From positions 1,024,001 to 1,088,000 of the forward strand of contig CAVUMN010000004.1 of NCBI GenBank assembly GCA_963742735.1: a stretch of 64,000 nt of DNA. The letters are read 5' to 3'. The notes under the pieces are model-generated. The model ran no database searches, was not told the DNA's origin, and saw only the letters and a list, made by a program, of their open reading frames with translations. Each line of letters begins with the position of its first letter. Position 1 is the stretch's first letter. Source of the DNA: an uncultured Actinomycetes bacterium. Lineage in GTDB: Bacteria > Actinomycetota > UBA4738 > JBBDTT01. A program made the translations under genes and the position numbers. Below are positions 52,977-63,069 of this stretch, piece by piece.

Positions 52977-54236
52977 ATGACGCAGATGCGTACCGACCCA
53001 CGCCCGCGCGTGGCCTTCGTGAGCCTGCACACCTCCCCGCTCGACCAGCCCGGCACGGGCGACTCCGGGGGCATGAACGTGTATATCCGCGCGGTGGCGG
53101 AGCAGCTCGCGGGCCGCGACGTGGACGTCGACGTCTTCACCCGGTGCCGCGGCCAGGGCGTGCCCGAGGTCGAGGACATCGCCGACGGGGCCCGCGTCAT
53201 CACCGTCCAGGCCGGCCCGTGTGCGCCCATGGCCAAGGCCGATCTGCCCGAGCTCCTGCCGAACTTCCTGGAGAGCGTGCGCGCCTTTCGCCGGCGCGAC
53301 GGGCTGGCGTACGACATCGTCCACAGCCACTACTGGCTGTCGGGCTGGGTGGGGCAGCGGCTGGTGGACGAGCTCCAGGCGCCGCTGGTCGCCTCGTTCC
53401 ACACCCTGGGCAAGGTGAAGAACTTCACGCGCGTGTCGAACGACCTCCCGGAGCCGGCTCACCGGCTGGACCAGGAGGAGCGGGTGGTCGGCCGCGCGGA
53501 CCGCATCCTGGCGCCGACGCCGGCCGAGGCGGCCCAGCTGGTCGGCCTCTACGGCGCGGATCCCGAGCGCGTCCGGGTGATCCCGCCCGGGGTGGACATG
53601 TCGCTGTTTGCGCCGCGCGATCCCGCCGAGGCCCGGGCCCGGCTGGGGCTGGTGGGCAAGCGCGTCCTGGTGTTCGTCGGACGGCTTCAGCAGCTCAAGG
53701 GGCCGGACGTGGCCATCCGCGCGCTGGCCGAGGCGGTGGCGCGCGACCCGGTCGCGACCCGGGACGTGGTGCTCGCCGTGGTCGGCGGCCCCAGCGGTCC
53801 ACGCGACGGCGCCAGCGAGGTCGAGTCGCTCATGGACCTGGCCACGACGGCCGGCGTGGGCGACCGCGTCCAGTTCTACCCGCCGCAGGCGCACGAGCGG
53901 CTGCCCGACTTCTACTCGGCCGCCGAGGCCGTGCTGGTGCCATCGCGCTCGGAGTCCTTCGGGCTGGTGGCGCTGGAGGCCCAGGCCTGCGGCGCGCCGA
54001 TCGTGGGCGCGTCGGTGGGCGGGCTGCGGCTGGCCGTGGCCGACGGCGAGTCGGGGTTCCTGGTGTGCGGCCACGACCCGGCCGACTACGCCGACCGCAT
54101 CCTGCAGGTGCTCACCGACCCGGGCCTGGCGAGCTCGATGCGGGCCCGCGCGCTGGAGCACGCGCGCCGGTTCTCGTGGGGCGCCACCGCCACCGGCACC
54201 CTCGGGGTGTACCGGGAGCTCGGCGCCGCCGCCTAA
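52977..54236 (+). CDS. mshA: D-inositol-3-phosphate glycosyltransferase (mycothiol biosynthesis)
   Basis: SLHTSPLDQPGTGDSGGMNVY, HSHYWLSG, HTLGKVKN, VGRLQQLKGPD, SESFGLVALEAQACG. Confidence 0.92.
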   Translation: MTQMRTDPRPRVAFVSLHTSPLDQPGTGDSGGMNVYIRAVAEQLAGRDVDVDVFTRCRGQGVPEVEDIADGARVITVQAGPCAPMAKADLPELLPNFLESVRAFRRRDGLAYDIVHSHYWLSGWVGQRLVDELQAPLVASFHTLGKVKNFTRVSNDLPEPAHRLDQEERVVGRADRILAPTPAEAAQLVGLYGADPERVRVIPPGVDMSLFAPRDPAEARARLGLVGKRVLVFVGRLQQLKGPDVAIRALAEAVARDPVATRDVVLAVVGGPSGPRDGASEVESLMDLATTAGVGDRVQFYPPQAHERLPDFYSAAEAVLVPSRSESFGLVALEAQACGAPIVGASVGGLRLAVADGESGFLVCGHDPADYADRILQVLTDPGLASSMRARALEHARRFSWGATATGTLGVYRELGAAA

Positions 54237-54320: not shown

Positions 54321-56984
54321 GTGCTGATGACCATGACGACGACGTCTGCCCGCCGCCATCGCGTGGCCGCCATCCTGGTGGCCCTGGCAGTGGCGTTCGG
54401 CGCCGTGGCACTGATCGTCCCCGCCCTCGCCGCCGGCTGCTCGCTGGACCCCAGCCCCTGGCGGAGCATCAACCCCCGCTTCCCGGCCGGCGGCGGCGAG
54501 GTCGCCGCCATCGCGACCCTGCGGTTCACCCCGGCGTACGTCTACGTCTCGAACGGCCCCTCGATCGTTCGGTCCGCCGACGGGGGCTGCACGTTCGCCG
54601 ACGCCCTCACGCTCACGGAGCTGGGCCTGAGTCAGGCGGCCCGCGTCACGCACATGGCCATGTACGCGGGCGACCCGCGGATCGTCTACGCCGTGATCGA
54701 GGAGACGACTCCCACGCACCGGATCCGGATCGCCCGCACGCGCGACGCGGGCGGGGACTGGGTGCTGGACGACGACGGCCTGGAGGCCGCGGTGGGCTCC
54801 CCGCTCGCGTTCGGGGTCGGCACGCGCGACAGCGAGAACAGCCTCTACCTCCTGGTGGGCCCGGCTCGCCTGACGGACGGCGAACCGTCCGTCTCGACCG
54901 GGCCGGTGCTCTACCGGAGCCTCAACCAGAGCGACACGTGGGAGCCGCGGACCGCGCCCGCCGACCTCCTGGGCGTTGGCGGCGCCGGCGAGGGGGATGA
55001 GCTCGACCTGCGAGGCATCGAGCTCGATCCCCGCGAGCCGAACAACGTCTGGCTGTACGGGCCGAGCGGCCTGTTCAAGAGCGAGAACGGCGGGGGGGCG
55101 GTCACGCAGGTCATGACCGAGCCGATCAGCGAGGTGCTCGACATGCGGACGCAGGGCGGGCTGCACTGGGTCCTGGTGTTCCACGCCGAGCGCCGCAGTG
55201 CGTTCCTCTCCCTGGACGGCGGAGGCAGCTTCCGGCCGATCGGCGTGCCGGGTGTAGGGCAGTCCGCGGCGCCGGGACGCGTCGATCTGAAGTCGGGCGA
55301 GTTCGTGATGACCTCGCTCGCCGGCGACGCCTTCCACCGGGTCGAGCTCGACGGGGCCTCCGCCGACCTCTCCCCGGGCGACGGCCGCGCCGTGTACGAC
55401 CTGCAGACCGGGCTCGTCAACAACAGCAACGACCTGGTCGTCTACGGGCGGACGGCGACCTCGCTCGAGCGGATGGTCCTGCCGGGGCCCCCGGTCCTCG
55501 GCGAGAACTCGATCCCGCCTCTGGACCCCGACGACCTCCAGCTCCCCGACGGCCGGACGCTTCGCCGGCCGACCATCGTCCCGCCCGGTGAGCAGGTGAA
55601 GCTCGCCGCCGGCGAACGCCGGACGCTCCCGGTTCGCCTGTTCATGCCGGGGACCCGCCGCGTGGACGTGTTCTTCCTGATCGACGCGTCGGCGAGCATG
55701 GGGCCGGCCATCTCGGGCCTGCGGGGGGCGCTCGCCGAGATCGTCCGGCAGCTGAACGCCGCCGGGATCGACACCTACTTCGGGCTCGCGCTCTACAAGG
55801 GCTATGACCCTCAGGCCGGAGACCCGGCGGACCGGTTCGTGTACCGCCGCATCCGTGACGTGGGCCCGCCCGACCGCGACTTCGTGATCAAGCTGGGCGA
55901 GATCGGCGTGAGCGGCGACGTGAACAACGAGAGCTCGCTGGGCGCGCTGTATCAGCTGGCGACCGGGGCCGGTCAGGACTCTGCGCCGATGTCGATCCCC
56001 GCCGGACAGGGCGCCCACTTCCGGACCGGGGCGCTCCCGGTCGTCGTGCACGCGACGGACGAGGCGTTCTCCCACGCCGCCCCGAACCCCCAGGTCGAGA
56101 CGGTGGCCTCCGCGATGCGGGCGGTGAAGGCGCTGCAGGTGGGCCTCGCCCTGCAGAGGGAGAACCAGGGTCTCATCGACCGCCGCAGCCGGCCCGGCGC
56201 CGATCTGGAGGACATGGCCCGGCGAACCGGAGCGGTCGCGCCGGTGGAGGGGCTGGACTGCGACGGCGACGGGTTCCCGAACCACGGGCCCGGCGAACCG
56301 CTCGTGTGCGCCATCGACCCCGCGCGGTCGAACGACGCGCAGGTGATGGCGCCGGCCATCGTCAACCTGCTGCTCAGCCTGGTGGACCTCGCCGACGTCT
56401 CGCTCGAGGCGAAGAGCGATCCGGGGATCGTTCGCAAGGTGTCCGCGCCCGTCAGAGACGTGCCCCTCAACTACGCCCACCAGCTCGCCTACGCGGTGAC
56501 GGTGGCGTGCCCGCCGTCGGCGGAGGGGGAGTCGCACGAGCTCGAGCTCGAGGCGTTCGCGCGGGGGGCGGCGCTGGCGAGCGGCGCCACCCAGATCGTG
56601 TGCGGCGTTCGGGTGCCGGAGCTCGCGAGGGTGCTGCCGCCGCTGGTGATCAACCCGCCGCCGGCGCCGCAGCCCGTGCAGCAGTCGAACCCGCAGTCCA
56701 ACCCCCAGCCGCAGGGCGCGTTCGCGGCGCAGCGCCAGCAGCAGCATCAGCTCGTATACGGATACGTGAACCCCACCAAGCCGCAGCCCGAGGTGGCTCC
56801 CGCCCGTGAGGAGAGCTACGAGATGCGCCGCGTACGGGAGGAGTTCACCGGCGTCCCGCCGGCGGCGACGTTCCTGACCGGCGCCGCGCTGGCCATGGGC
56901 TTCGCCCTGGCCTCGCGCCGCCGAGCTTCGCCCGCCCTGGCCCGGGCCCGCGTGACGAGACCCCCGAGGAGGAGGACCTGGTGA
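54321..56984 (+). CDS. Secreted beta-propeller (Asp-box) plus vWA domain protein with C-terminal membrane anchor
   Basis: Signal peptide; SADGGCTF, SLDGGGSF; MIDAS FLIDASASM ... ATDE; Pro/Gln linker; C-terminal hydrophobic segment plus RRR. Confidence 0.8.
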   Translation: MLMTMTTTSARRHRVAAILVALAVAFGAVALIVPALAAGCSLDPSPWRSINPRFPAGGGEVAAIATLRFTPAYVYVSNGPSIVRSADGGCTFADALTLTELGLSQAARVTHMAMYAGDPRIVYAVIEETTPTHRIRIARTRDAGGDWVLDDDGLEAAVGSPLAFGVGTRDSENSLYLLVGPARLTDGEPSVSTGPVLYRSLNQSDTWEPRTAPADLLGVGGAGEGDELDLRGIELDPREPNNVWLYGPSGLFKSENGGGAVTQVMTEPISEVLDMRTQGGLHWVLVFHAERRSAFLSLDGGGSFRPIGVPGVGQSAAPGRVDLKSGEFVMTSLAGDAFHRVELDGASADLSPGDGRAVYDLQTGLVNNSNDLVVYGRTATSLERMVLPGPPVLGENSIPPLDPDDLQLPDGRTLRRPTIVPPGEQVKLAAGERRTLPVRLFMPGTRRVDVFFLIDASASMGPAISGLRGALAEIVRQLNAAGIDTYFGLALYKGYDPQAGDPADRFVYRRIRDVGPPDRDFVIKLGEIGVSGDVNNESSLGALYQLATGAGQDSAPMSIPAGQGAHFRTGALPVVVHATDEAFSHAAPNPQVETVASAMRAVKALQVGLALQRENQGLIDRRSRPGADLEDMARRTGAVAPVEGLDCDGDGFPNHGPGEPLVCAIDPARSNDAQVMAPAIVNLLLSLVDLADVSLEAKSDPGIVRKVSAPVRDVPLNYAHQLAYAVTVACPPSAEGESHELELEAFARGAALASGATQIVCGVRVPELARVLPPLVINPPPAPQPVQQSNPQSNPQPQGAFAAQRQQQHQLVYGYVNPTKPQPEVAPAREESYEMRRVREEFTGVPPAATFLTGAALAMGFALASRRRASPALARARVTRPPRRRTW

Positions 56985-59080
56985 GCACCCCGGAGACGAC
57001 GACCGACCTGGGAGACGCCCCCTTCCGCAGGCGCTACGACGCGTGGCGGCTCCGGCGGCGCCGCTCGCGCCAGGCCCGCCGCCCCAGCCCCGGCCGCCGC
57101 ATGACGATCGGGCTGATCGCGGTCGTGATCGTGCTCCTCGGCGCGTTCGGATGGTCCGTCTCGTACCTCACGCCCCGGACCGAGGGCACCCAGCTCTCCC
57201 TGGACGAGCTCGAGGCCCTTTCCGCGGAGCTCCGCGTGGAGACCGCGACCTTCCAGGACGAGGACAACCGCCTGGTCGGCGAGTTCTCGGCGCCGATCCC
57301 ACCCGCCCCCAGGCCCAGGCCGAGGGCCACCGCCTCGCCGAGCCCGTCGCCCGAGCCGGCGGTCGAGACCCCCGTCGGGTCCGGCGCGTACTGGGTGGCC
57401 TACCCGAAGGGCGGCGCGGCGTTCGCGGCCCTGTTCGACACGCTCACCGCCTCGGGCGCCCGCGTCGACGTCGACCCCCAGGTCTCCAAGACGGTCGTGC
57501 GCACCATCTCCACGTACCTGCTGCCCCTGCTCATCCTGGCCAGCGTGTTCGGCCTGCTGTTCGCCACCGGCCGGTCGGGCGGATCCGGCATCGGCGAGGT
57601 CATGACGTTCGGCACCATCGGCAAGAAGCGCTACTCGCGGGGCATGACCGCGCCGACCACCTTCGACGACGTGGGCAGCGCCGAGGAGGCGGTGACCGAG
57701 CTCAAGGAGGTCGTCGACTACCTCCAGGACCCGGATCGCTACGAGAAGATCGGCGCGACCCCGCCCAAGGGCGTCCTGCTGTACGGGCCCCCGGGGTGCG
57801 GCAAGACCCTGCTGGCCAAGGCCGTCGCCGGCGAGGCGAACGTGCCGTTCTTCTTCGTGGCCGGCGCGGAGTTCGTGGAGTCGCTGGTCGGCGTGGGCGC
57901 GGCCCGCGTGCGCGACCTGTTCCAGCGGGTCCGCGCGGTGGCGCCGGCGATCGTGTTCATCGACGAGCTCGACGCGGCCGGGCGCCGGCGCGGCCATGGC
58001 GGCGGCGAGGGCGGGAGCGACGAGCGCGAGCAGACCCTGAACCAGCTCCTGGTGGAGATGGACGGGTTCGAGGTCTCGGCGGGCATCGTGGTCGTCGGCG
58101 CGACGAACCGCCCCGACATCCTGGACCCGGCGCTGCTCCGCCCCGGCCGGTTCGACCGCCACATCACCGTCGAGCAGCCGGACCACGCCGGGCGGGTGGA
58201 GATCCTGAAGCTGCACGCCCGCGGCAAGCCCGTCGACGCCGACGTGGACTACGACTACCTGGCCAAGCGGACCCCCGGGTTCAGCGGCGCCGACCTGGCC
58301 AGCGTCATCAACGAGGGCGCGCTGCTCTCGATCCGCCACGGCCGCAACCACATCGGGACCGAGGACCTCGAGGAGGCCATCCAGCGCGTCCTCCACGGCC
58401 CGAAGCGCCGCGGCCGGCTGCTGACGCCGGAGGAGGAGCGGCGGTCGGCGTACCACGAGGCCGGCCACGCGGTGGTGGCGGCGGCCCTCGGCCGGGCCGA
58501 TCAGGTCCACCGCGTCTCGATCCTCGCCCGCGGCGGCGGCCTGGGGATCACCGCCCTGCAGCGCGACACCAGCGACTCGGTCCTGTTCACCGCGAGCCAG
58601 CTGTACTCGCGGCTGGTCACCGAGGTGGCCGGGCTCGCCGCGGAGTCCCTCGCGTTCGGCGAGATCTCCACCGGCGCCGAGCGCGACCTGGAGCACGCCA
58701 CGGAGATCGCCCGGGACATGGTCGCCCGCTACGGCATGTCGCCGTCCCTGGGACGGCCGCGCCTGATCGCCTCGGACGCGGAGCGGTTCCTGGGAAGCGA
58801 GGGCGCCCTCGGGCAGATCTCGCTGGAGACCGTCCAGGAGCTCGACCGCGAGGTGCGCCGGCTCATGGACCGGGCGGAGTCCGACGCCACGCGGATCCTC
58901 AAGGCGAACCGGCGCATCGTGGACGACCTCGCCCGGAAGCTCGAGAAGGAGGAGTCGCTCGAGGGCCGGCCGCTGGACACGATCCTCGGCAAGGTCCCGA
59001 CCTCGGCCGCCGCGGGCCTGGAGCCCTTCCCCGAGAACGGAACGCGGGTCCGGCGCAGGGCTCCCGCCCCCAAGCACTAG
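56981..59080 (+). CDS. ftsH: ATP-dependent zinc metalloprotease, FtsH homolog
   Basis: Two TM segments, PKGVLLYGPPGCGKT, FIDELDA, ATNRPDILDPALLRPGRFDR, HEAGH, STGA..D; GTGA overlap with the vWA gene. Confidence 0.9.
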   Translation: MSTPETTTDLGDAPFRRRYDAWRLRRRRSRQARRPSPGRRMTIGLIAVVIVLLGAFGWSVSYLTPRTEGTQLSLDELEALSAELRVETATFQDEDNRLVGEFSAPIPPAPRPRPRATASPSPSPEPAVETPVGSGAYWVAYPKGGAAFAALFDTLTASGARVDVDPQVSKTVVRTISTYLLPLLILASVFGLLFATGRSGGSGIGEVMTFGTIGKKRYSRGMTAPTTFDDVGSAEEAVTELKEVVDYLQDPDRYEKIGATPPKGVLLYGPPGCGKTLLAKAVAGEANVPFFFVAGAEFVESLVGVGAARVRDLFQRVRAVAPAIVFIDELDAAGRRRGHGGGEGGSDEREQTLNQLLVEMDGFEVSAGIVVVGATNRPDILDPALLRPGRFDRHITVEQPDHAGRVEILKLHARGKPVDADVDYDYLAKRTPGFSGADLASVINEGALLSIRHGRNHIGTEDLEEAIQRVLHGPKRRGRLLTPEEERRSAYHEAGHAVVAAALGRADQVHRVSILARGGGLGITALQRDTSDSVLFTASQLYSRLVTEVAGLAAESLAFGEISTGAERDLEHATEIARDMVARYGMSPSLGRPRLIASDAERFLGSEGALGQISLETVQELDREVRRLMDRAESDATRILKANRRIVDDLARKLEKEESLEGRPLDTILGKVPTSAAAGLEPFPENGTRVRRRAPAPKH

Positions 59081-59086
59081 CCGGGC

Positions 59087-59641
59087 TCAGGCCTCGTTCG
59101 GGTCGGGCACGATGGGGGCTTCGAAGGTCCCCCGGATCGAGCCGCTGGAGTCGTGCACGTCGATGGCGCCACAGACCCGCTCCTCGTCCGCGACCGAGAT
59201 CGTCATCTCCGAGCCCTCACCGCCGATCGTGGTGGGGAGGTAGCTGGAGTCCGCCGTCCGCGCGCCGGGGGAGAAGATCGTGTTCTCCCCGGTCACGTAG
59301 GGGTAGGTGCCCGGCGTGGGCAGCTCCTTGTCCATCCGGAACCAGTCGATCTCGATCACGTGGTTCCCCTCGGGGACCTCGTAGAACGACGTGTCGCCGG
59401 GCTCGAGGTCGTAGTCGGCGAAGAAGAGCTGGTAGTGGTCGCCGTACAGGGAGTCGTCCTCGACGACGAACACGAACGAGGTCGAGGGCTCCAGGGAGAA
59501 CTCCGGCATGCTCGAACCGACCGCCGTGAACGAGGTCGTCGCGGGACAGCTGCCCTGCGCGGGAGCCTCGACGGAGGGCGCGTCGTCGCCGCAGGCAACG
59601 AGGCCGAGGACCAGGATCAGCGGGGCGAGGCGGGAGAGCAC
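59087..59641 (-). CDS. Putative lipoprotein
   Basis: From GTG 59641: VLSRLAPLILVLGLVAC lipobox; acidic beta-rich body. Confidence 0.7.
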   Translation of the reverse strand: MLSRLAPLILVLGLVACGDDAPSVEAPAQGSCPATTSFTAVGSSMPEFSLEPSTSFVFVVEDDSLYGDHYQLFFADYDLEPGDTSFYEVPEGNHVIEIDWFRMDKELPTPGTYPYVTGENTIFSPGARTADSSYLPTTIGGEGSEMTISVADEERVCGAIDVHDSSGSIRGTFEAPIVPDPNEA

Positions 59642-59757
59642 GGCGGCAAGGATACGAGCGGAAGGGTCCCGCGCCCGGAGTTCGCCAAACTTTCTCCGAA
59701 CGACTTTGCGGGGCATCTGACCTGCGACGACGCGACGCCACCAGGGGTTTTGTCTCC

Positions 59758-59786
59758 TTGACCCTGAACGGGCCCGCCAGTACATT
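59758..59786 (+). promoter_or_regulatory. Sigma70-type promoter of the structured RNA
   Basis: TTGACC(59758-59763)-N17-TACATT(59781-59786); the predicted +1 at G59794 is the first paired base. Confidence 0.7.
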
Positions 59787-59793
59787 CCGCCTC

Positions 59794-60099
59794 GCTCCGA
59801 GGTGCTGGAGCGGTCGAATCAGGGAACCGAATGGGACCCCCTGGGAAAGCCGTAAGGCCGACTAGGCGCACCTGCTCGTACGGTTGGGAAGGCCAACTAG
59901 CTGTGCGGGTGGGGAGGCTTGGAAGGCCCCAAAGCCCAACGAAAGGGGTCATCATAAGGAAACCGAGACGGCGGCTAAGGTACCTCGGAGCACCTGACCC
60001 GAGGGGCTGACGGTGGCCGCGAGGTCGGTGGAAGGGGGGCTTGCTCCCCGGAAGCGGAGTCTCTGCGGCGAGCCGAAGGTCCCTCGGGTCTTTAACTTT
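59794..60099 (+). ncRNA. Unassigned highly structured non-coding RNA, about 300 nt
   Basis: GCTCCGAGGTGC(59794-59805)/GTACCTCGGAGC(59980-59991); GACCCC/GGGGTC; GCC-GTAA-GGC; GACCCGAGGG(59996-60005)/CCCTCGGGTC(60081-60090) then TTTAACTTT. No credible CDS. Confidence 0.7.
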
Positions 60100-60173
60100 C
60101 CCGCCTCCATCCGGTCGCCCGGGTGAGGGGCCCCGGGGGGTGGCGCCTGCGGTGGATCGGAGTGTCTCCTCGG

Positions 60174-60345
60174 GCCAACTCACCGAATATCGCGGCACCG
60201 CTATGTCTCCCAGAGGCTGGCGCCGCACACAAAGGGACGTTCCTGGAGTCTGAGCGGAACCGAGACGGACGCCGGGCGGCCGCGAGTCGAGCCGAACCGG
60301 CCGACGCAGCGAATATAGCGGGCTCGCGATATTCCGTGAGTGGGC
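60174..60345. repeat. 33-bp imperfect inverted repeat pair flanking 106 bp
   Basis: 60174-60206 GCCAACTCACCGAATATCGCGGCACCGCTATGT versus the reverse complement of 60313-60345 GCCCACTCACGGAATATCGCGAGCCCGCTATAT (27/33 identical). Confidence 0.7.
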
Positions 60346-60409
60346 GTTCGACAGAGCCTCGGTGTCGCTCTGGTTCTGCCTGACCCGCTTCAGCTCCTAC
60401 CAGTCAGGC

Positions 60410-60706
60410 TCATTGCTCCCTCAGCCAGCGTTCATAGGTCGGTTTCCGGCGCCATGGCAGCTTCCGCCAGAGCGGCCTTGAAGGCTCAGGCCAGAAGCAG
60501 CCGCCGGTATTACAACGCTCATCCGGGTCGTAGCCGGCATTGACGTGCTCGTATGCGAGGTGGAAGCAGACCCAATGCATCCGTTCGAACGTTTCGTAGT
60601 CCTGGGCGTTCACCCGAACTGGCTCCCCACAGCGAGCGCAGATGCGTGCTCCAGCCACCGCGTGGTCCACAGCGGGAGTCTTACGCACGCCAGGGTTCCA
60701 GTCCAC
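60410..60706 (-). CDS. Small Cys/His-rich (putative zinc-binding) hypothetical protein
   Basis: CARC...MHWVCFHLAYEH...DPDERCNTGGC; lower GC than its neighbours. Start uncertain. Confidence 0.55.
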   Translation of the reverse strand: MDWNPGVRKTPAVDHAVAGARICARCGEPVRVNAQDYETFERMHWVCFHLAYEHVNAGYDPDERCNTGGCFWPEPSRPLWRKLPWRRKPTYERWLREQ

Positions 60707-60761
60707 GAGATCGCCCGGAGCGGGTGCAAGAGTCGTACGGCAGGTTCGATACCCTTACGTC

Positions 60762-61308
60762 ATGCCCGGAGATGCGCTTATCGTCGTCGACGTGCAGGAG
60801 GGGTTCACGCGGCTCGGGAACCTCGCCAGCCCGGTGTGCACCGAGGCCATCCCGCGGATCGTCAGCGTCGTCGAGTCCGCCTTCAACGACGGCACTCCCG
60901 TCATCTTCACCAAGGACTCGCACGTCGAGAACGACCGCGAGTTCGAGATGTTCCCGCCGCACTGCATCGTGGGCACGCCCGAGCACGACCTGGTCGAGGA
61001 GCTGCGGCCCTTCGAGGGCCGCGCCACCGCGGTCATCGAGAAGCGCCGGTACTCCGCGTTCTTCGAGACCGACCTCGAGGGGCTGCTGCGAGAACCTCGG
61101 CGTCGAGGCGGTGCGCGTGGCCGGGCTGTGTACCGACATCTGCGTCCTGCACACCACCTCGGACCTGCGCAACCGCGACTACCCGGTGACCGTCCTGGCC
61201 GAGGGGTGTCAGACGTTCGACGCGCCGGGGCACGACCACGACGAGGTCAACCGGTGGGCGTTCGCCCACATGAAGGGGATCCTCGGCGCGACGGTCGAGG
61301 GGGAGTAG
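60762..61308 (+). CDS. Isochorismatase/nicotinamidase-family cysteine hydrolase, frameshifted near 61090
   Basis: ALIVVDVQEGF, TKDSH, FPPHCIVGT, KRRYSAFF; second frame VAGLCTDICV. Confidence 0.85.
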
Positions 61309-62240: not shown

Positions 62241-63069
62241 ATGAGCCGGAAGGTCGCCTTCCTCGGCGGCGGAAAGATGGGCGAGGCCCTGATCTCGGGC
62301 CTGCTGCGCGGCGGCGGCCGCTCGGCCGACGAGATCATGGTCACCGTGCGCCGCGAGGAGCGCGCGAAGGAACTGGCCGAGCGCTACGCGATCCAGACCT
62401 CGCTCTCGAACGTGGACGCGGCGGAGTGGGCCGAGGTCCTGGTCCTGTCGGTGAAGCCGCAGGACATGGAGGCGCTGCTGGAGCAGCTCGACGGCTCGGT
62501 CACCGGCGAGACCCTCGTCGTCTCCCTGGCCGCCGGCATCCGGACCGGCTTCATCGAGAAGCGTCTCCCCGAGGGCGTCACGGTCGTGCGGGTCATGTCG
62601 AACGTCGCCGTCGAGGTGGACGAGGCCATGTCCGTGATCAGCGCCGGCACCCACGCCGAGGACAAGCACCTCGCCGATCGCCGAGGAGCTCCTGTCGAGC
62701 GTGGGCAAGGTCATCCGCCTGTCGGAGACCTACCAGGACGGCGTCACCGCGCTGTCCGGATCGGGCCCCGCGTACTTCTTCCTGCTGGCCGAGGCGATGA
62801 TCGACTCGGGCATCCTGCTGGGGATGCCCCGCGACGTGGCGACCGACCTGATCATCCAGACGATGGTCGGCTCGGCGAAGATGCTGCGCGACACCGGCAA
62901 GCACCCGGTCGAGCTTCGGGAGATGGTCACCAGCCCCGGCGGCACCACGATCGTGGCCATCAAGCACCTGGAGCAGGCCGGCATCCGGGCCGCGTTCCTG
63001 AACGCGATCGACGCCGCCCGGGACCGCAGCGCCGAGCTCGCCAAGGGCGACGAGGCCGAGACCATCTAG
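62241..63069 (+). CDS. proC: Pyrroline-5-carboxylate reductase, frameshifted near 62678
   Basis: FLGGGKMG, LSVKPQ, SLAAG, RVMSN; second frame TALSGSGPAY, VTSPGGTT. Confidence 0.92.

Follow-up and report, generated by a model that had tools for sequence, protein, structure and literature searches.

Ms1 (also MTS2823 and scr3559) is a small RNA (sRNA) of Mycobacterium and Streptomyces that binds the core of RNA polymerase; in the portions of its published descriptions on which we draw, it is ~300 nucleotides (nt) long, very abundant, and transcribed from a conserved sigma-A-like promoter to a terminator of its own (PMC4191392, PMC9130861). It forms a long hairpin in which an internal loop and the adjacent helices are best conserved, together with short end hairpins, and its neighbors are genes for an HAD-IB hydrolase and an oxidoreductase, with 6C RNA one gene away (PMC4191392, PMC9130861). 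Rfam provides Ms1 candidates, and Ms1 RNAs of different genera are stated in the same excerpted account not to be similar by BLAST (PMC9130861). Further lineage-specific, abundant RNAs that bind RNA polymerase have been proposed, according to excerpts of PMC11077062. Here we describe an unassigned structured RNA of ~300 nt, encoded on the + strand at 59794-60099 of a 64,000-nt stretch of DNA (the window) from an uncultured Actinomycetes bacterium (GenBank assembly GCA_963742735.1, contig CAVUMN010000004.1, positions 1,024,001 to 1,088,000), and compare it with these and other known RNAs.

The present RNA is like Ms1 in its size, in its promoter and terminator, which delimit a single-gene unit, in its rod with a conserved internal loop, in the hairpin near its 3' end, in its high abundance, and in its phylum, as far as the excerpts on Ms1 go. 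It is unlike Ms1 in having no Rfam match, no 5' hairpin, two large internal loops instead of one, a palindromic apical loop, and an exchangeable interior, and in its neighbors, which encode an mshA-like GT4 protein, TetR, an isochorismatase, proline dehydrogenase, and ProC. CoRP of Corynebacterium glutamicum is likewise a lineage-specific, abundant, unannotated actinobacterial RNA, binds RNA polymerase, and is dissimilar to 6S RNA and Ms1; by the excerpted description it is set apart from the present RNA by its length of ~516 nt, its flanking tRNA genes, and its cleavage in two (PMC11077062). With 6S RNA (RF00013) our RNA has in common that it is an abundant rod-shaped sRNA with a large internal loop and its own transcription unit; it differs from 6S RNA in being longer (~300 versus ~160 to 200 nt), in its extra 3' domain and two loops, and in giving no match to the 6S model. 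Complex conserved folds, GNRA tetraloops, high expression, and the lack of an obvious cis target are found in raiA/ModT, OLE, ROOL, and GOLLD as well, compared with which this RNA is smaller, occurs in other taxa, matches none of their Rfam families, and has a modular build of closing helix (P1), interior, and 3' hairpin module (D2).

It is virtually certain that the locus encodes a real structured RNA, and the RNA almost surely represents a new family, of a kind not yet assignable. The explanation of its function that we find best overall, with a probability of roughly 0.4, is that the RNA would form kissing dimers through its apical loop and would act in trans as a stable particle that binds or sequesters protein.

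Fold and covariation

When folded, the + strand of 59794-60099 reached -175.2 kcal/mol (z = -8.6), and none of 100 shuffled sequences was as good. The fold of the - strand was weak (z = -1.5), as expected, because the RNA is rich in G-U pairs. Twenty-nine homologs, picked by blastn alone, were aligned (alignments A1 and A2), and the RNAalifold consensus of these comprised 85 pairs, in which 96.1% of the cells were paired, compared with 27 to 49% when the 3' partners were slid by 1 to 3 columns. Covariation among homologs, which a first-pass annotation made from the letters alone had named as a check on its RNA claim, was clearly present: compensatory changes occurred at 38 of the 85 pairs (11 to 17 with partners slid), and for the covariation measures none of 500 shuffles reached any observed value. 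Without the 7 rows that come from unpublished genomes, 96.8% of cells were paired and 35 pairs showed compensatory changes. Unpublished genomes are included in the genome tallies given below for blastn, for the covariance models R1 and R2, for 6S RNA and the 6S-like locus, and for the sister sRNA S3; they also supply seven rows of alignments A1 to A4, two type C copies (genome G115), and one locus of family f52 (L191), the public counterpart of which appears to be L153, on a contig equally long at 16,586 bases. No conclusion depends solely on them.

In the consensus prediction, domain 1 forms a rod that is essentially without branches and is interrupted by two large internal loops (Table 1). 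The first-pass annotation had drawn a multibranch domain closed by a 12-bp helix; the closing helix exists but is 1 bp longer, and the branching did not survive the alignment of the 29 homologs. Two of the helices proposed within it are real, namely GACCCC/GGGGTC, which is helix P3 and covaries (one example pair is G-C in 17 sequences and A-U in 10), and a long GU-rich helix (59871-59887 with 59897-59913). Two others are not supported: instead of a GGCTT/AAGCC helix, covariation links the A/G of CTAGGC to the T in GGCTT (G-C 24, A-U 3, G-U 2), and CTGG and CTAG, which had been paired, are not complementary. Within P1, CCGAG/CUCGG is replaced by CCAAG/CUUGG in the variant RNAs that we term type B (see below) and in other lineages, and the 3' strand of P1 belongs to the covariance model R2, which detects the family outside the class. 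The UCAGGGAACCGA motif of the outer internal loop is conserved throughout the class and in family f18, with a related form in type B, and the 3' strand of this loop is swapped for a small hairpin, GGGG-CGCA-CCCC, in some lineages.

Both strands of the inner junction, CTGGGAAAGC.GTAAGG and CCCCAA.GCCCAACGA, were invariant in the 29 sequences found by blastn. Further loci were collected by a pattern search for these two motifs and were thus selected for them, so invariance in those loci proves nothing. In alignment A3, RNAalifold paired the junction UGGG with CCCA of the 3' strand. A GUAA-capped hairpin of three pairs is a plausible candidate within the junction; the GCC-GTAA-GGC hairpin proposed earlier is indeed invariant there, with wobble-only variation, and as a hairpin it is plausible and unproven. 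In the terminal hairpin, compensatory changes were seen in 3 of the 10 pairs of P4-P5 and in 9 of the 16 pairs of P6-P7, in which 97.8% of cells were paired. The second domain of ~95 nt that had been proposed exists and is referred to here as D2; CCCGAG/CUCGGG of its basal stem becomes CCCAAG/CUUGGG in four lineages. The GCGA and CTTG hairpins noted in it do lie in its inner part, which varies in length, and most relatives have a short UUCG-type hairpin in their place.

Table 1. Positions of the RNA and of its promoter region in the window
Feature	Position	Strand	Remarks
Upstream motif CTGACCTGCGA	59717-59727	+	~30 nt 5' of the -35 box; conserved
CCAGGGGTTTTGTCTCC element	59741-59757	+	Abuts the -35 box on its 5' side
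Promoter, sigma-A type	59758-59786	+	-35 TTGACC, 59758-59763; 17-nt spacer; -10 TACATT, 59781-59786
Domain 1	59794-59991	+	Predicted rod closed by P1; two conserved internal loops, 9-nt apical loop
P1	59794-59806 with 59979-59991	+	13 bp; 98.7% of cells paired; 3 pairs with compensatory changes
P2	59810-59815 with 59970-59975	+	6 bp; compensatory changes in 5 of 6 pairs
Outer internal loop, 5' strand GAAUCAGGGAACCGA	59816-59830	+	Sequence conserved
P3	59831-59839 with 59945-59955	+	11 pairs, 5 with compensatory changes
Invariant junction, 5' strand CCUGGGAAAGCCGUAA	59840-59855	+	Runs into GG
Terminal hairpin P4-P7	59856-59928	+	Long, GU-rich
Apical loop GAAGGCCAA	59888-59896	+	9 nt; tetranucleotide GGCC, 59891-59894
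Invariant junction, 3' strand CCAAAGCCCAACGAAA	59929-59944	+	
Outer internal loop, 3' strand AAGGAAACCGAGAC	59956-59969	+	Conserved in the class and in f18
Linker	59992-59995	+	4 nt
D2, 3' hairpin module	59996-60090	+	Purine-rich internal loops
D2 basal stem	59996-60008 with 60078-60090	+	13 pairs; 99.2% of cells paired; 4 with compensatory changes
D2 second stem	60012-60020 with 60065-60074	+	
D2 variable tip	60021-60064	+	Length differs among homologs
U-rich tail TTTAACTTTCC	60091-60101	+	Putative intrinsic termination site

A self-complementary apical loop

The apical loop carries a tetranucleotide that varies from one palindrome to another. Among 116 unique full-length homologs it was GGCC in 58 and AGCU in 29, with GCGC (4), GUAC (4), and GAUC (2) completing the five kinds of Watson-Crick palindrome, present together in 97 sequences; GGCU (4) is self-complementary with wobble pairs, AGCC (11) and AGCG (4) are so at the inner two bases only, and the inner dinucleotide is self-complementary in all 116. 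Palindromes were found in 27 of the 29 sequences not chosen by pattern, the chance for a random tetranucleotide being 1 in 16. In a phylogeny from which the loop columns had been left out, at least 5 changes fell on the inner pair, always between self-complementary dinucleotides, and at least 22 on the outer pair. GGCC and AGCU are both present within each of the families f5, f7, and f8. No other segment of the RNA tracked the tetranucleotide among the 116 homologs; paralogs within one genome mostly share it, some of them perhaps being recent copies. Positions 1 and 4 of the four-base stretch cannot pair in one loop, so the simplest reading is that two molecules, or two cores, pair. From this pattern of sequence variation, loop-loop self-pairing in a kissing dimer appears somewhat more likely than not. 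The dimerization initiation site (DIS) hairpin of HIV-1 likewise has a 9-nt apical loop with a purine-flanked self-complementary core and palindrome-to-palindrome variants; unlike the DIS, the palindrome here has four bases instead of six and belongs to a bacterial chromosomal sRNA, in which the putative dimer is read from sequence alone.

Exchangeable modules and sister sRNAs

Several homologs differ from the window's RNA by whole modules. In four genera (g5, g14, g24, and g42; loci L174 to L177), an RNA termed type B occupies the locus between an mshA-like gene and those for TetR and proC. Type B retains the promoter, P1, and D2; its interior consists of 300 to 430 nt with five to eight GCAA-capped hairpins and folds as a multibranch structure (z = -7.2). 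D2 is thus kept even where the interior of domain 1 is replaced. Type C is a separate RNA of ~190 nt in g5, g14, and g49, with 13 matches in 12 loci (L178, L179, and L205 to L216). It corresponds to a reduced core rod with a P1-like closing helix of its own, directly followed by a U-run and without D2 (z = -5.6); its loci have no conserved neighbor, and the next gene is often on the opposite strand. Finally, one low-GC lineage carries two adjacent genes of the family (L035, - strand, ~640-1560; L090, 1-830), both of which have promoters of their own with a GCGCGAA...CGCGAA repeat ahead of them, and the second of these genes holds two cores inside a single P1-D2 frame. Contigs from RNA libraries that join 59946 back to 59839 represent the same tandem-core arrangement. 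The swapped interiors, the core without D2, and the tandem cores indicate that the rod is one module and the P1-D2 frame another, and that the two can be separated.

A module like D2 recurs elsewhere in the genome. The covariance model R2, made of the P1 3' strand and D2, gave second matches in six genomes, the window's own and five relatives. In the former, the match is to an sRNA, S2, at C3:862051-862139 on the - strand (L217, L229), with orthologs in the five relatives (L218 to L222); S2 is unannotated and conserved, is ~110 nt long, and has a TTGAC promoter, a small 5' hairpin, a D2-like 3' hairpin, and a U-rich tail. A third sRNA, the likewise unannotated S3, of ~290 nt at C1 ~135094-135399 on the + strand (L252, L253), was found by means of a short motif and by eye and was not listed by R2, even at E <= 5. 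Its build resembles that of the present RNA: a promoter and a helix (GGUCCCAAGCGG/CGCUUGGGACC) that closes an interior containing the GGGAACCGA motif, followed by what by eye looks like a D2-like hairpin. With blastn, part of S3 matched in 38 of 41 relatives, and among high-quality genomes in 27 of 27. Neither S2 nor S3 matched an Rfam family. D2 may be a terminator that is at the same time a handle, recurring in one other conserved sRNA and, as judged by eye, in S3. The first-pass annotation had missed the family's modularity, the self-complementarity of the apical loop, and the existence of sister sRNAs whose 3' module is related.

Promoter, transcript limits, and expression

The near-consensus promoter proposed earlier, TTGACC-17-TACATT, was the sole promoter-like site when 59000-61000 was scanned (mean of 0.1 in shuffled sequence), and it is conserved. 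TTGAC of the -35 box was kept in 113 of the 113 sequences that have letters at those positions, and among 116 sequences the -10 box had its T in 109, its A in 109, and its final T in 111; most of these loci had been collected by the core pattern, outside of which the promoter lies. Farther upstream, the TTG.C columns next to the -35 box were conserved in alignment A1 and in the 116 sequences, CCAGGG(G)TTTT was likewise found in f18 loci, and the CCAGGGGTTTTGTCTCC element may have a role in the promoter region. By eye, the motif CTGACCTGCGG also stands 5' of the homologous promoters in another class (the f18 loci) and of those of type B, and a motif of the CTGACCTGCGA type is found, inverted, 5' of type C promoters. 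The upstream motif was not enriched genome-wide, with 29 matches versus ~27 expected by our own estimate; CTGACCTGCG was accordingly dropped as a regulon marker, and because its count is near chance, no regulon was drawn. As a separate observation, G000:C3:349165-349640, which is not part of the window (G000 being the window's own genome), holds some nine copies of (C)TGACCTGCGG(T)TTT inside 500 nt, 5' of a sequence resembling the 3' half of a tRNA and then a hairpin of the same motif; of the motif of this array, one copy lies 5' of the RNA's promoter (59717-59727).

Transcription would start at ~59794. Contigs in which adapter is joined at 59796 (runs X17 and X20) and at 59808 (runs X15 and X16) give a weak hint of a 5' end near that position. 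At the other end, domain 2 is followed by TTTAACTTT, and the 10 nt past D2 contained at least four T in all 29 homologs (29/29) and at least five in 26 of them. A simple terminator scan did not call D2, because its stem and loop exceed the limits of the scan. Termination at the D2 hairpin and U-tract near 60099, giving a product of ~300 nt, appears to be the natural reading of this arrangement.

Parts of the stretch occur in 20 of the 24 sequencing runs listed, among them 6 recorded as RNA; four RNA runs from three studies were examined, and X18 and X19, whose word shares are small, do not enter the results. Contigs from these four libraries covered 59792-60031 only, with none in 59600-59791 or 60032-60300, which is no proof that D2 beyond 60031 or the flanks are absent from the transcripts. 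Summed word depth went up to ~1.3 million, in a sediment run with 578 contigs; in a soil run it was 142,000, and one soil run held mismatch-free contigs for 59808-59863, 59834-59919, and 59921-59990. Contaminating DNA would not be expected to give such depth over the gene alone; the RNA is transcribed at a very high level in soil and sediment communities.

Noncoding nature and comparison with known families

Variation among the homologs was flat across codon positions (0.151, 0.145, and 0.140), the length of domain 1 differed from that in the window by a non-multiple of three in 15 of 28 homologs, and the two open reading frames (ORFs) that overlap the RNA matched no Pfam family; on these grounds a coding reading was rejected. 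Stop-free frames ran over the RNA in 10 of 29 sequences on the + strand and in 19 of 29 on the - strand; such frames are common because of the high G+C content, and their count is uninformative. The locus is an independent noncoding gene.

With Rfam 15 (4,227 families) at gathering scores, the whole window gave tRNA only, and at E <= 10 there was no + strand match in 59600-60400, so the RNA stays unassigned, as the first-pass annotation had it. Loose thresholds applied to the RNA, to types B and C, and to the sister sRNAs gave chance-level matches alone, mostly to eukaryotic families. RNase P RNA, tmRNA, and SRP RNA, none of whose hallmarks had been recognized in the RNA, were found above cutoff elsewhere in the genome (RF00010 at C2:192412, RF00023 at C4:1495551, and RF00169 at C4:496058, respectively) and were rejected as identities. 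In the window's own genome (88.9% complete), neither 6C RNA (RF01066) nor a TROVE-domain Ro protein (PF05731) was found, and a bacterial Y RNA was rejected with the latter. A full-text literature search, the scope of which excluded supplementary files and most subscription journals, found no description of the RNA; it may have been listed earlier as an unnamed motif.

The genome's 6S RNA probably lies at another locus. Of 101 genomes of the class, 8 gave subthreshold but typical RF00013 matches there, with a top score of 41.9 bits (cutoff, 46.4). The corresponding locus of the window's genome, G000:C3:707417-707499 (L204, 1485-1592), is 81% identical to that 41.9-bit match, which shows the typical GGGAGCCC...GGGCACCCACCUG signature, and itself scores 20.1 bits with RF00013. 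By blastn the 6S-like locus was found in 13 of 41 relatives (families f1, f6, f7, and f8), many of which also carry the present RNA. With this better candidate in the genome, a 6S identity of the present RNA was rejected.

Distribution and neighborhood

The RNA is single copy in its own genome. By blastn (E <= 0.001), 49 of 61 genomes of the order matched, including 34 of the 39 that are at least 90% complete, and identity across families was 75 to 89%, which is very high for noncoding DNA. The core covariance model R1 matched 87 of 151 genomes of the class, the sampled part of which amounts to one order. R2 matched 21 of 151 genomes sampled from the phylum: the class contributed 10 of its 11 genomes, f18 contributed 8 of its 10, and f11, f14 (weak), and f52 contributed one each. 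RNAs of f18 share the build but differ in having a variant core. The pattern search found at least 119 stretches that carry both invariant junction motifs, all titled as metagenome-assembled Actinomycetota.

By a tally that used crude ORF calling, the 124 unique loci had an mshA-like GT4 gene upstream on the same strand in 76 cases and proC downstream in 61. In most relatives, 100 to 150 nt separate the end of the mshA-like gene from the promoter of the RNA. On the other side, ~90 to 170 nt past D2, there is often a TetR-family gene, at both type A and type B loci; the downstream gene differs among genomes, being TetR, isochorismatase, or others, or lacking within 650 nt. Proline dehydrogenase is a further neighbor in the region. 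The order in f18 is mshA-like gene, GNAT, YbjN, RNA, with proC 4 to 5 kb beyond, and the presence of the RNA at the same mshA-to-proC locus there implies that the gene is old at this locus. The first-pass annotation had noted that no same-strand gene follows closely, which holds for ~650 nt in the window and not for the many relatives with TetR. Its view that this is a stand-alone RNA and not a riboswitch agrees with the conserved promoter of its own, the varying downstream genes, the type C loci without a conserved neighbor, and RNA libraries that cover the RNA and not its flanks, and we regard a stand-alone gene as very likely.

In the window, the mshA-like gene lies at 52977-54236 and no TetR gene follows the RNA. 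Between the mshA-like gene and the RNA there are a large unassigned ORF at 54321-56984 without a Pfam family, FtsH at 56981-59080, and a putative lipoprotein gene on the - strand at 59087-59650. Beyond the RNA, an isochorismatase-family gene (60750-61308) and proC (62250-63069) each appear to be split over two frames, Pfam having confirmed the N-terminal halves alone and the remainder having been recognized by eye in the ORF list; either frameshifts or errors of assembly account for the splits. The interval from the RNA to the isochorismatase-family gene also contains, on the - strand, an ORF of 98 codons (60410-60706), a candidate gene that encodes several Cys/His residues and belongs to no Pfam family. 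Just 3' of the RNA, ~135 nt of noncoding DNA are bracketed by a 16-nt inverted repeat with one mismatch, found by eye (60178-60193, ctcaccgaatatcgcg; 60328-60343, cgcgatattccgtgag).

Discussion

In the explanation that we favor, two RNA molecules would pair through the self-complementary apical tetranucleotide to give a kissing dimer, and in RNAs with two cores the kiss could be intramolecular. D2 would be a terminator plus a handle common to the sister sRNAs, and the RNA would act in trans as a stable protein-binding or protein-sequestering particle and not as the leader of a downstream gene. We hold the trans-acting, protein-binding part of this tentatively, at slightly less than even odds. 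By analogy with Ms1, 6S RNA, and CoRP, RNA polymerase would be the leading candidate for the partner, because Ms1 shares with this RNA its size, type of promoter, terminator, rod with a conserved loop, abundance, and phylum; we nevertheless rate this particular partner as unlikely.

Several observations weigh against this explanation. Against RNA polymerase in particular, the RNA has no similarity to 6S RNA or to any other Rfam family at E = 10, and the synteny of Ms1 (HAD-IB hydrolase, oxidoreductase, and nearby 6C RNA) is not seen here. A separate and better 6S-like candidate is present in the genome and in 13 of 41 relatives. At the same locus, some genera have the multibranch GNRA-hairpin array of type B and others have tandem cores, neither of which fits a fixed mimic of an open promoter. 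As to the kissing loop, 15 of the 116 loops (AGCC and AGCG) are self-complementary at the inner two bases only, and the counts of loop changes, obtained with FastTree on ~330 columns, are rough. The expression data are contigs and not reads, so that ends and levels are not reliably measurable from them, and because contigs of other organisms land solely on the conserved core, the empty flanks are partly to be expected.

The alternative that survives best, although we consider it doubtful, is an RNA-only, self-assembling "ornate" particle, in which dimers or larger assemblies would be held together by the palindromic kissing loop and GNRA contacts, with no RNA polymerase and perhaps no dedicated protein. 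It would work in the manner of OLE, ROOL, and GOLLD, large bacterial RNAs that form multimers. An apical loop that switches between palindromes, an invariant candidate hairpin with a GUAA cap in the junction, the five to eight GCAA-capped hairpins that radiate from a junction in type B, tandem cores with identical or compatible loop tetranucleotides, and the invariance of ~45 junction nucleotides across families would all suit such a particle. Yet the RNA is much smaller than OLE, ROOL, and GOLLD and has no Rfam match to them, and a kiss of four base pairs alone is weak. A protein partner would be compatible with self-assembly, which hence overlaps with the explanation given above.

It is improbable that the RNA acts as a base-pairing sRNA, with the C-rich segment CCCCAAAGCCCAAC (59927-59940) or the loop strands pairing with G-rich ribosome-binding regions. 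Pairing of this kind has been proposed for C-rich-loop sRNAs of Actinobacteria such as 6C, and the phylum is known to have sRNAs that carry C-rich seeds and do not depend on Hfq. Although the stand-alone gene with its own promoter and terminator and the invariant unpaired segments agree with such a role, the degree to which the helices covary, the size, and the presence of two domains would be unusual in an RNA of the seed type, and the invariant segments are probably engaged in tertiary or alternative pairs (UGGG with CCCA in alignment A3).

Slightly less probable still is a leader of the riboswitch type, in which P1 would close an aptamer formed by the domain 1 junction, D2 would be the terminator of the expression platform, and a ligand would set the balance between termination and read-through into the downstream gene. 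The location of a TetR-family gene shortly after D2 in type A and type B loci would fit, but the downstream gene is inconstant: there is none on the + strand for ~650 nt in the window, and elsewhere it is isochorismatase or others. Invariant junction nucleotides and tandem cores are reminiscent of aptamers and tandem aptamers, respectively; the supposed platform, D2, is nevertheless more widely conserved than the supposed aptamer, type B has P1 and D2 without the core, and type C has the core without D2 and without a conserved downstream gene. On paper, CCUCGG of the P1 3' strand is complementary to CCGAGG of the D2 5' strand, and the two could form an alternative hairpin, which has 6 bp versus 13-bp helices and is weakened where D2 has CCCAAG.

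That the RNA is the organism's own 6S RNA, an open-promoter mimic binding sigma-A holoenzyme, is highly improbable: it is an abundant rod with large internal loops in a genome where RF00013 finds nothing above cutoff, yet RF00013 matches neither it nor type C at E = 10, its ~300 nt, extra 3' domain, and two large loops do not suit, and G000:C3:707417-707499 is the locus homologous to the typical subthreshold 6S matches of the relatives.

More speculatively, and again unlikely in our estimation, the RNA could be the founding member of a modular superfamily (P1, an exchangeable interior, and D2) of deep-branching Actinomycetota, in which dimers or assemblies would form by means of the kissing loop and GNRA contacts and the D2 handle would mark sRNAs for one RNA-binding protein, a counterpart of Hfq or ProQ. 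To our knowledge, Hfq and ProQ are lacking in the phylum. If this were true, transcription of the members would start from related promoters, and few transcripts of these soil bacteria would be more abundant.

If the favored explanation holds, the locus would define a new structured RNA family that occurs widely in a branch of Actinomycetota that is common in soil, poorly known, and for the most part uncultured, and that in some environmental RNA libraries ranks with the most abundant transcripts. RNAs that are abundant, conserved, and of similar size have nearly always proved to be central players, as have 6S RNA, Ms1, tmRNA, RNase P RNA, and SRP RNA. The family offers testable features, namely a putative kissing dimer with natural compensatory variants, an interior that is swapped or duplicated, and a 3' module common to sister sRNAs, which may be a handle toward a common protein partner. 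It bears on the question of which RNAs may fill the role of 6S RNA or Ms1 in actinobacterial lineages without a known 6S RNA or Ms1.

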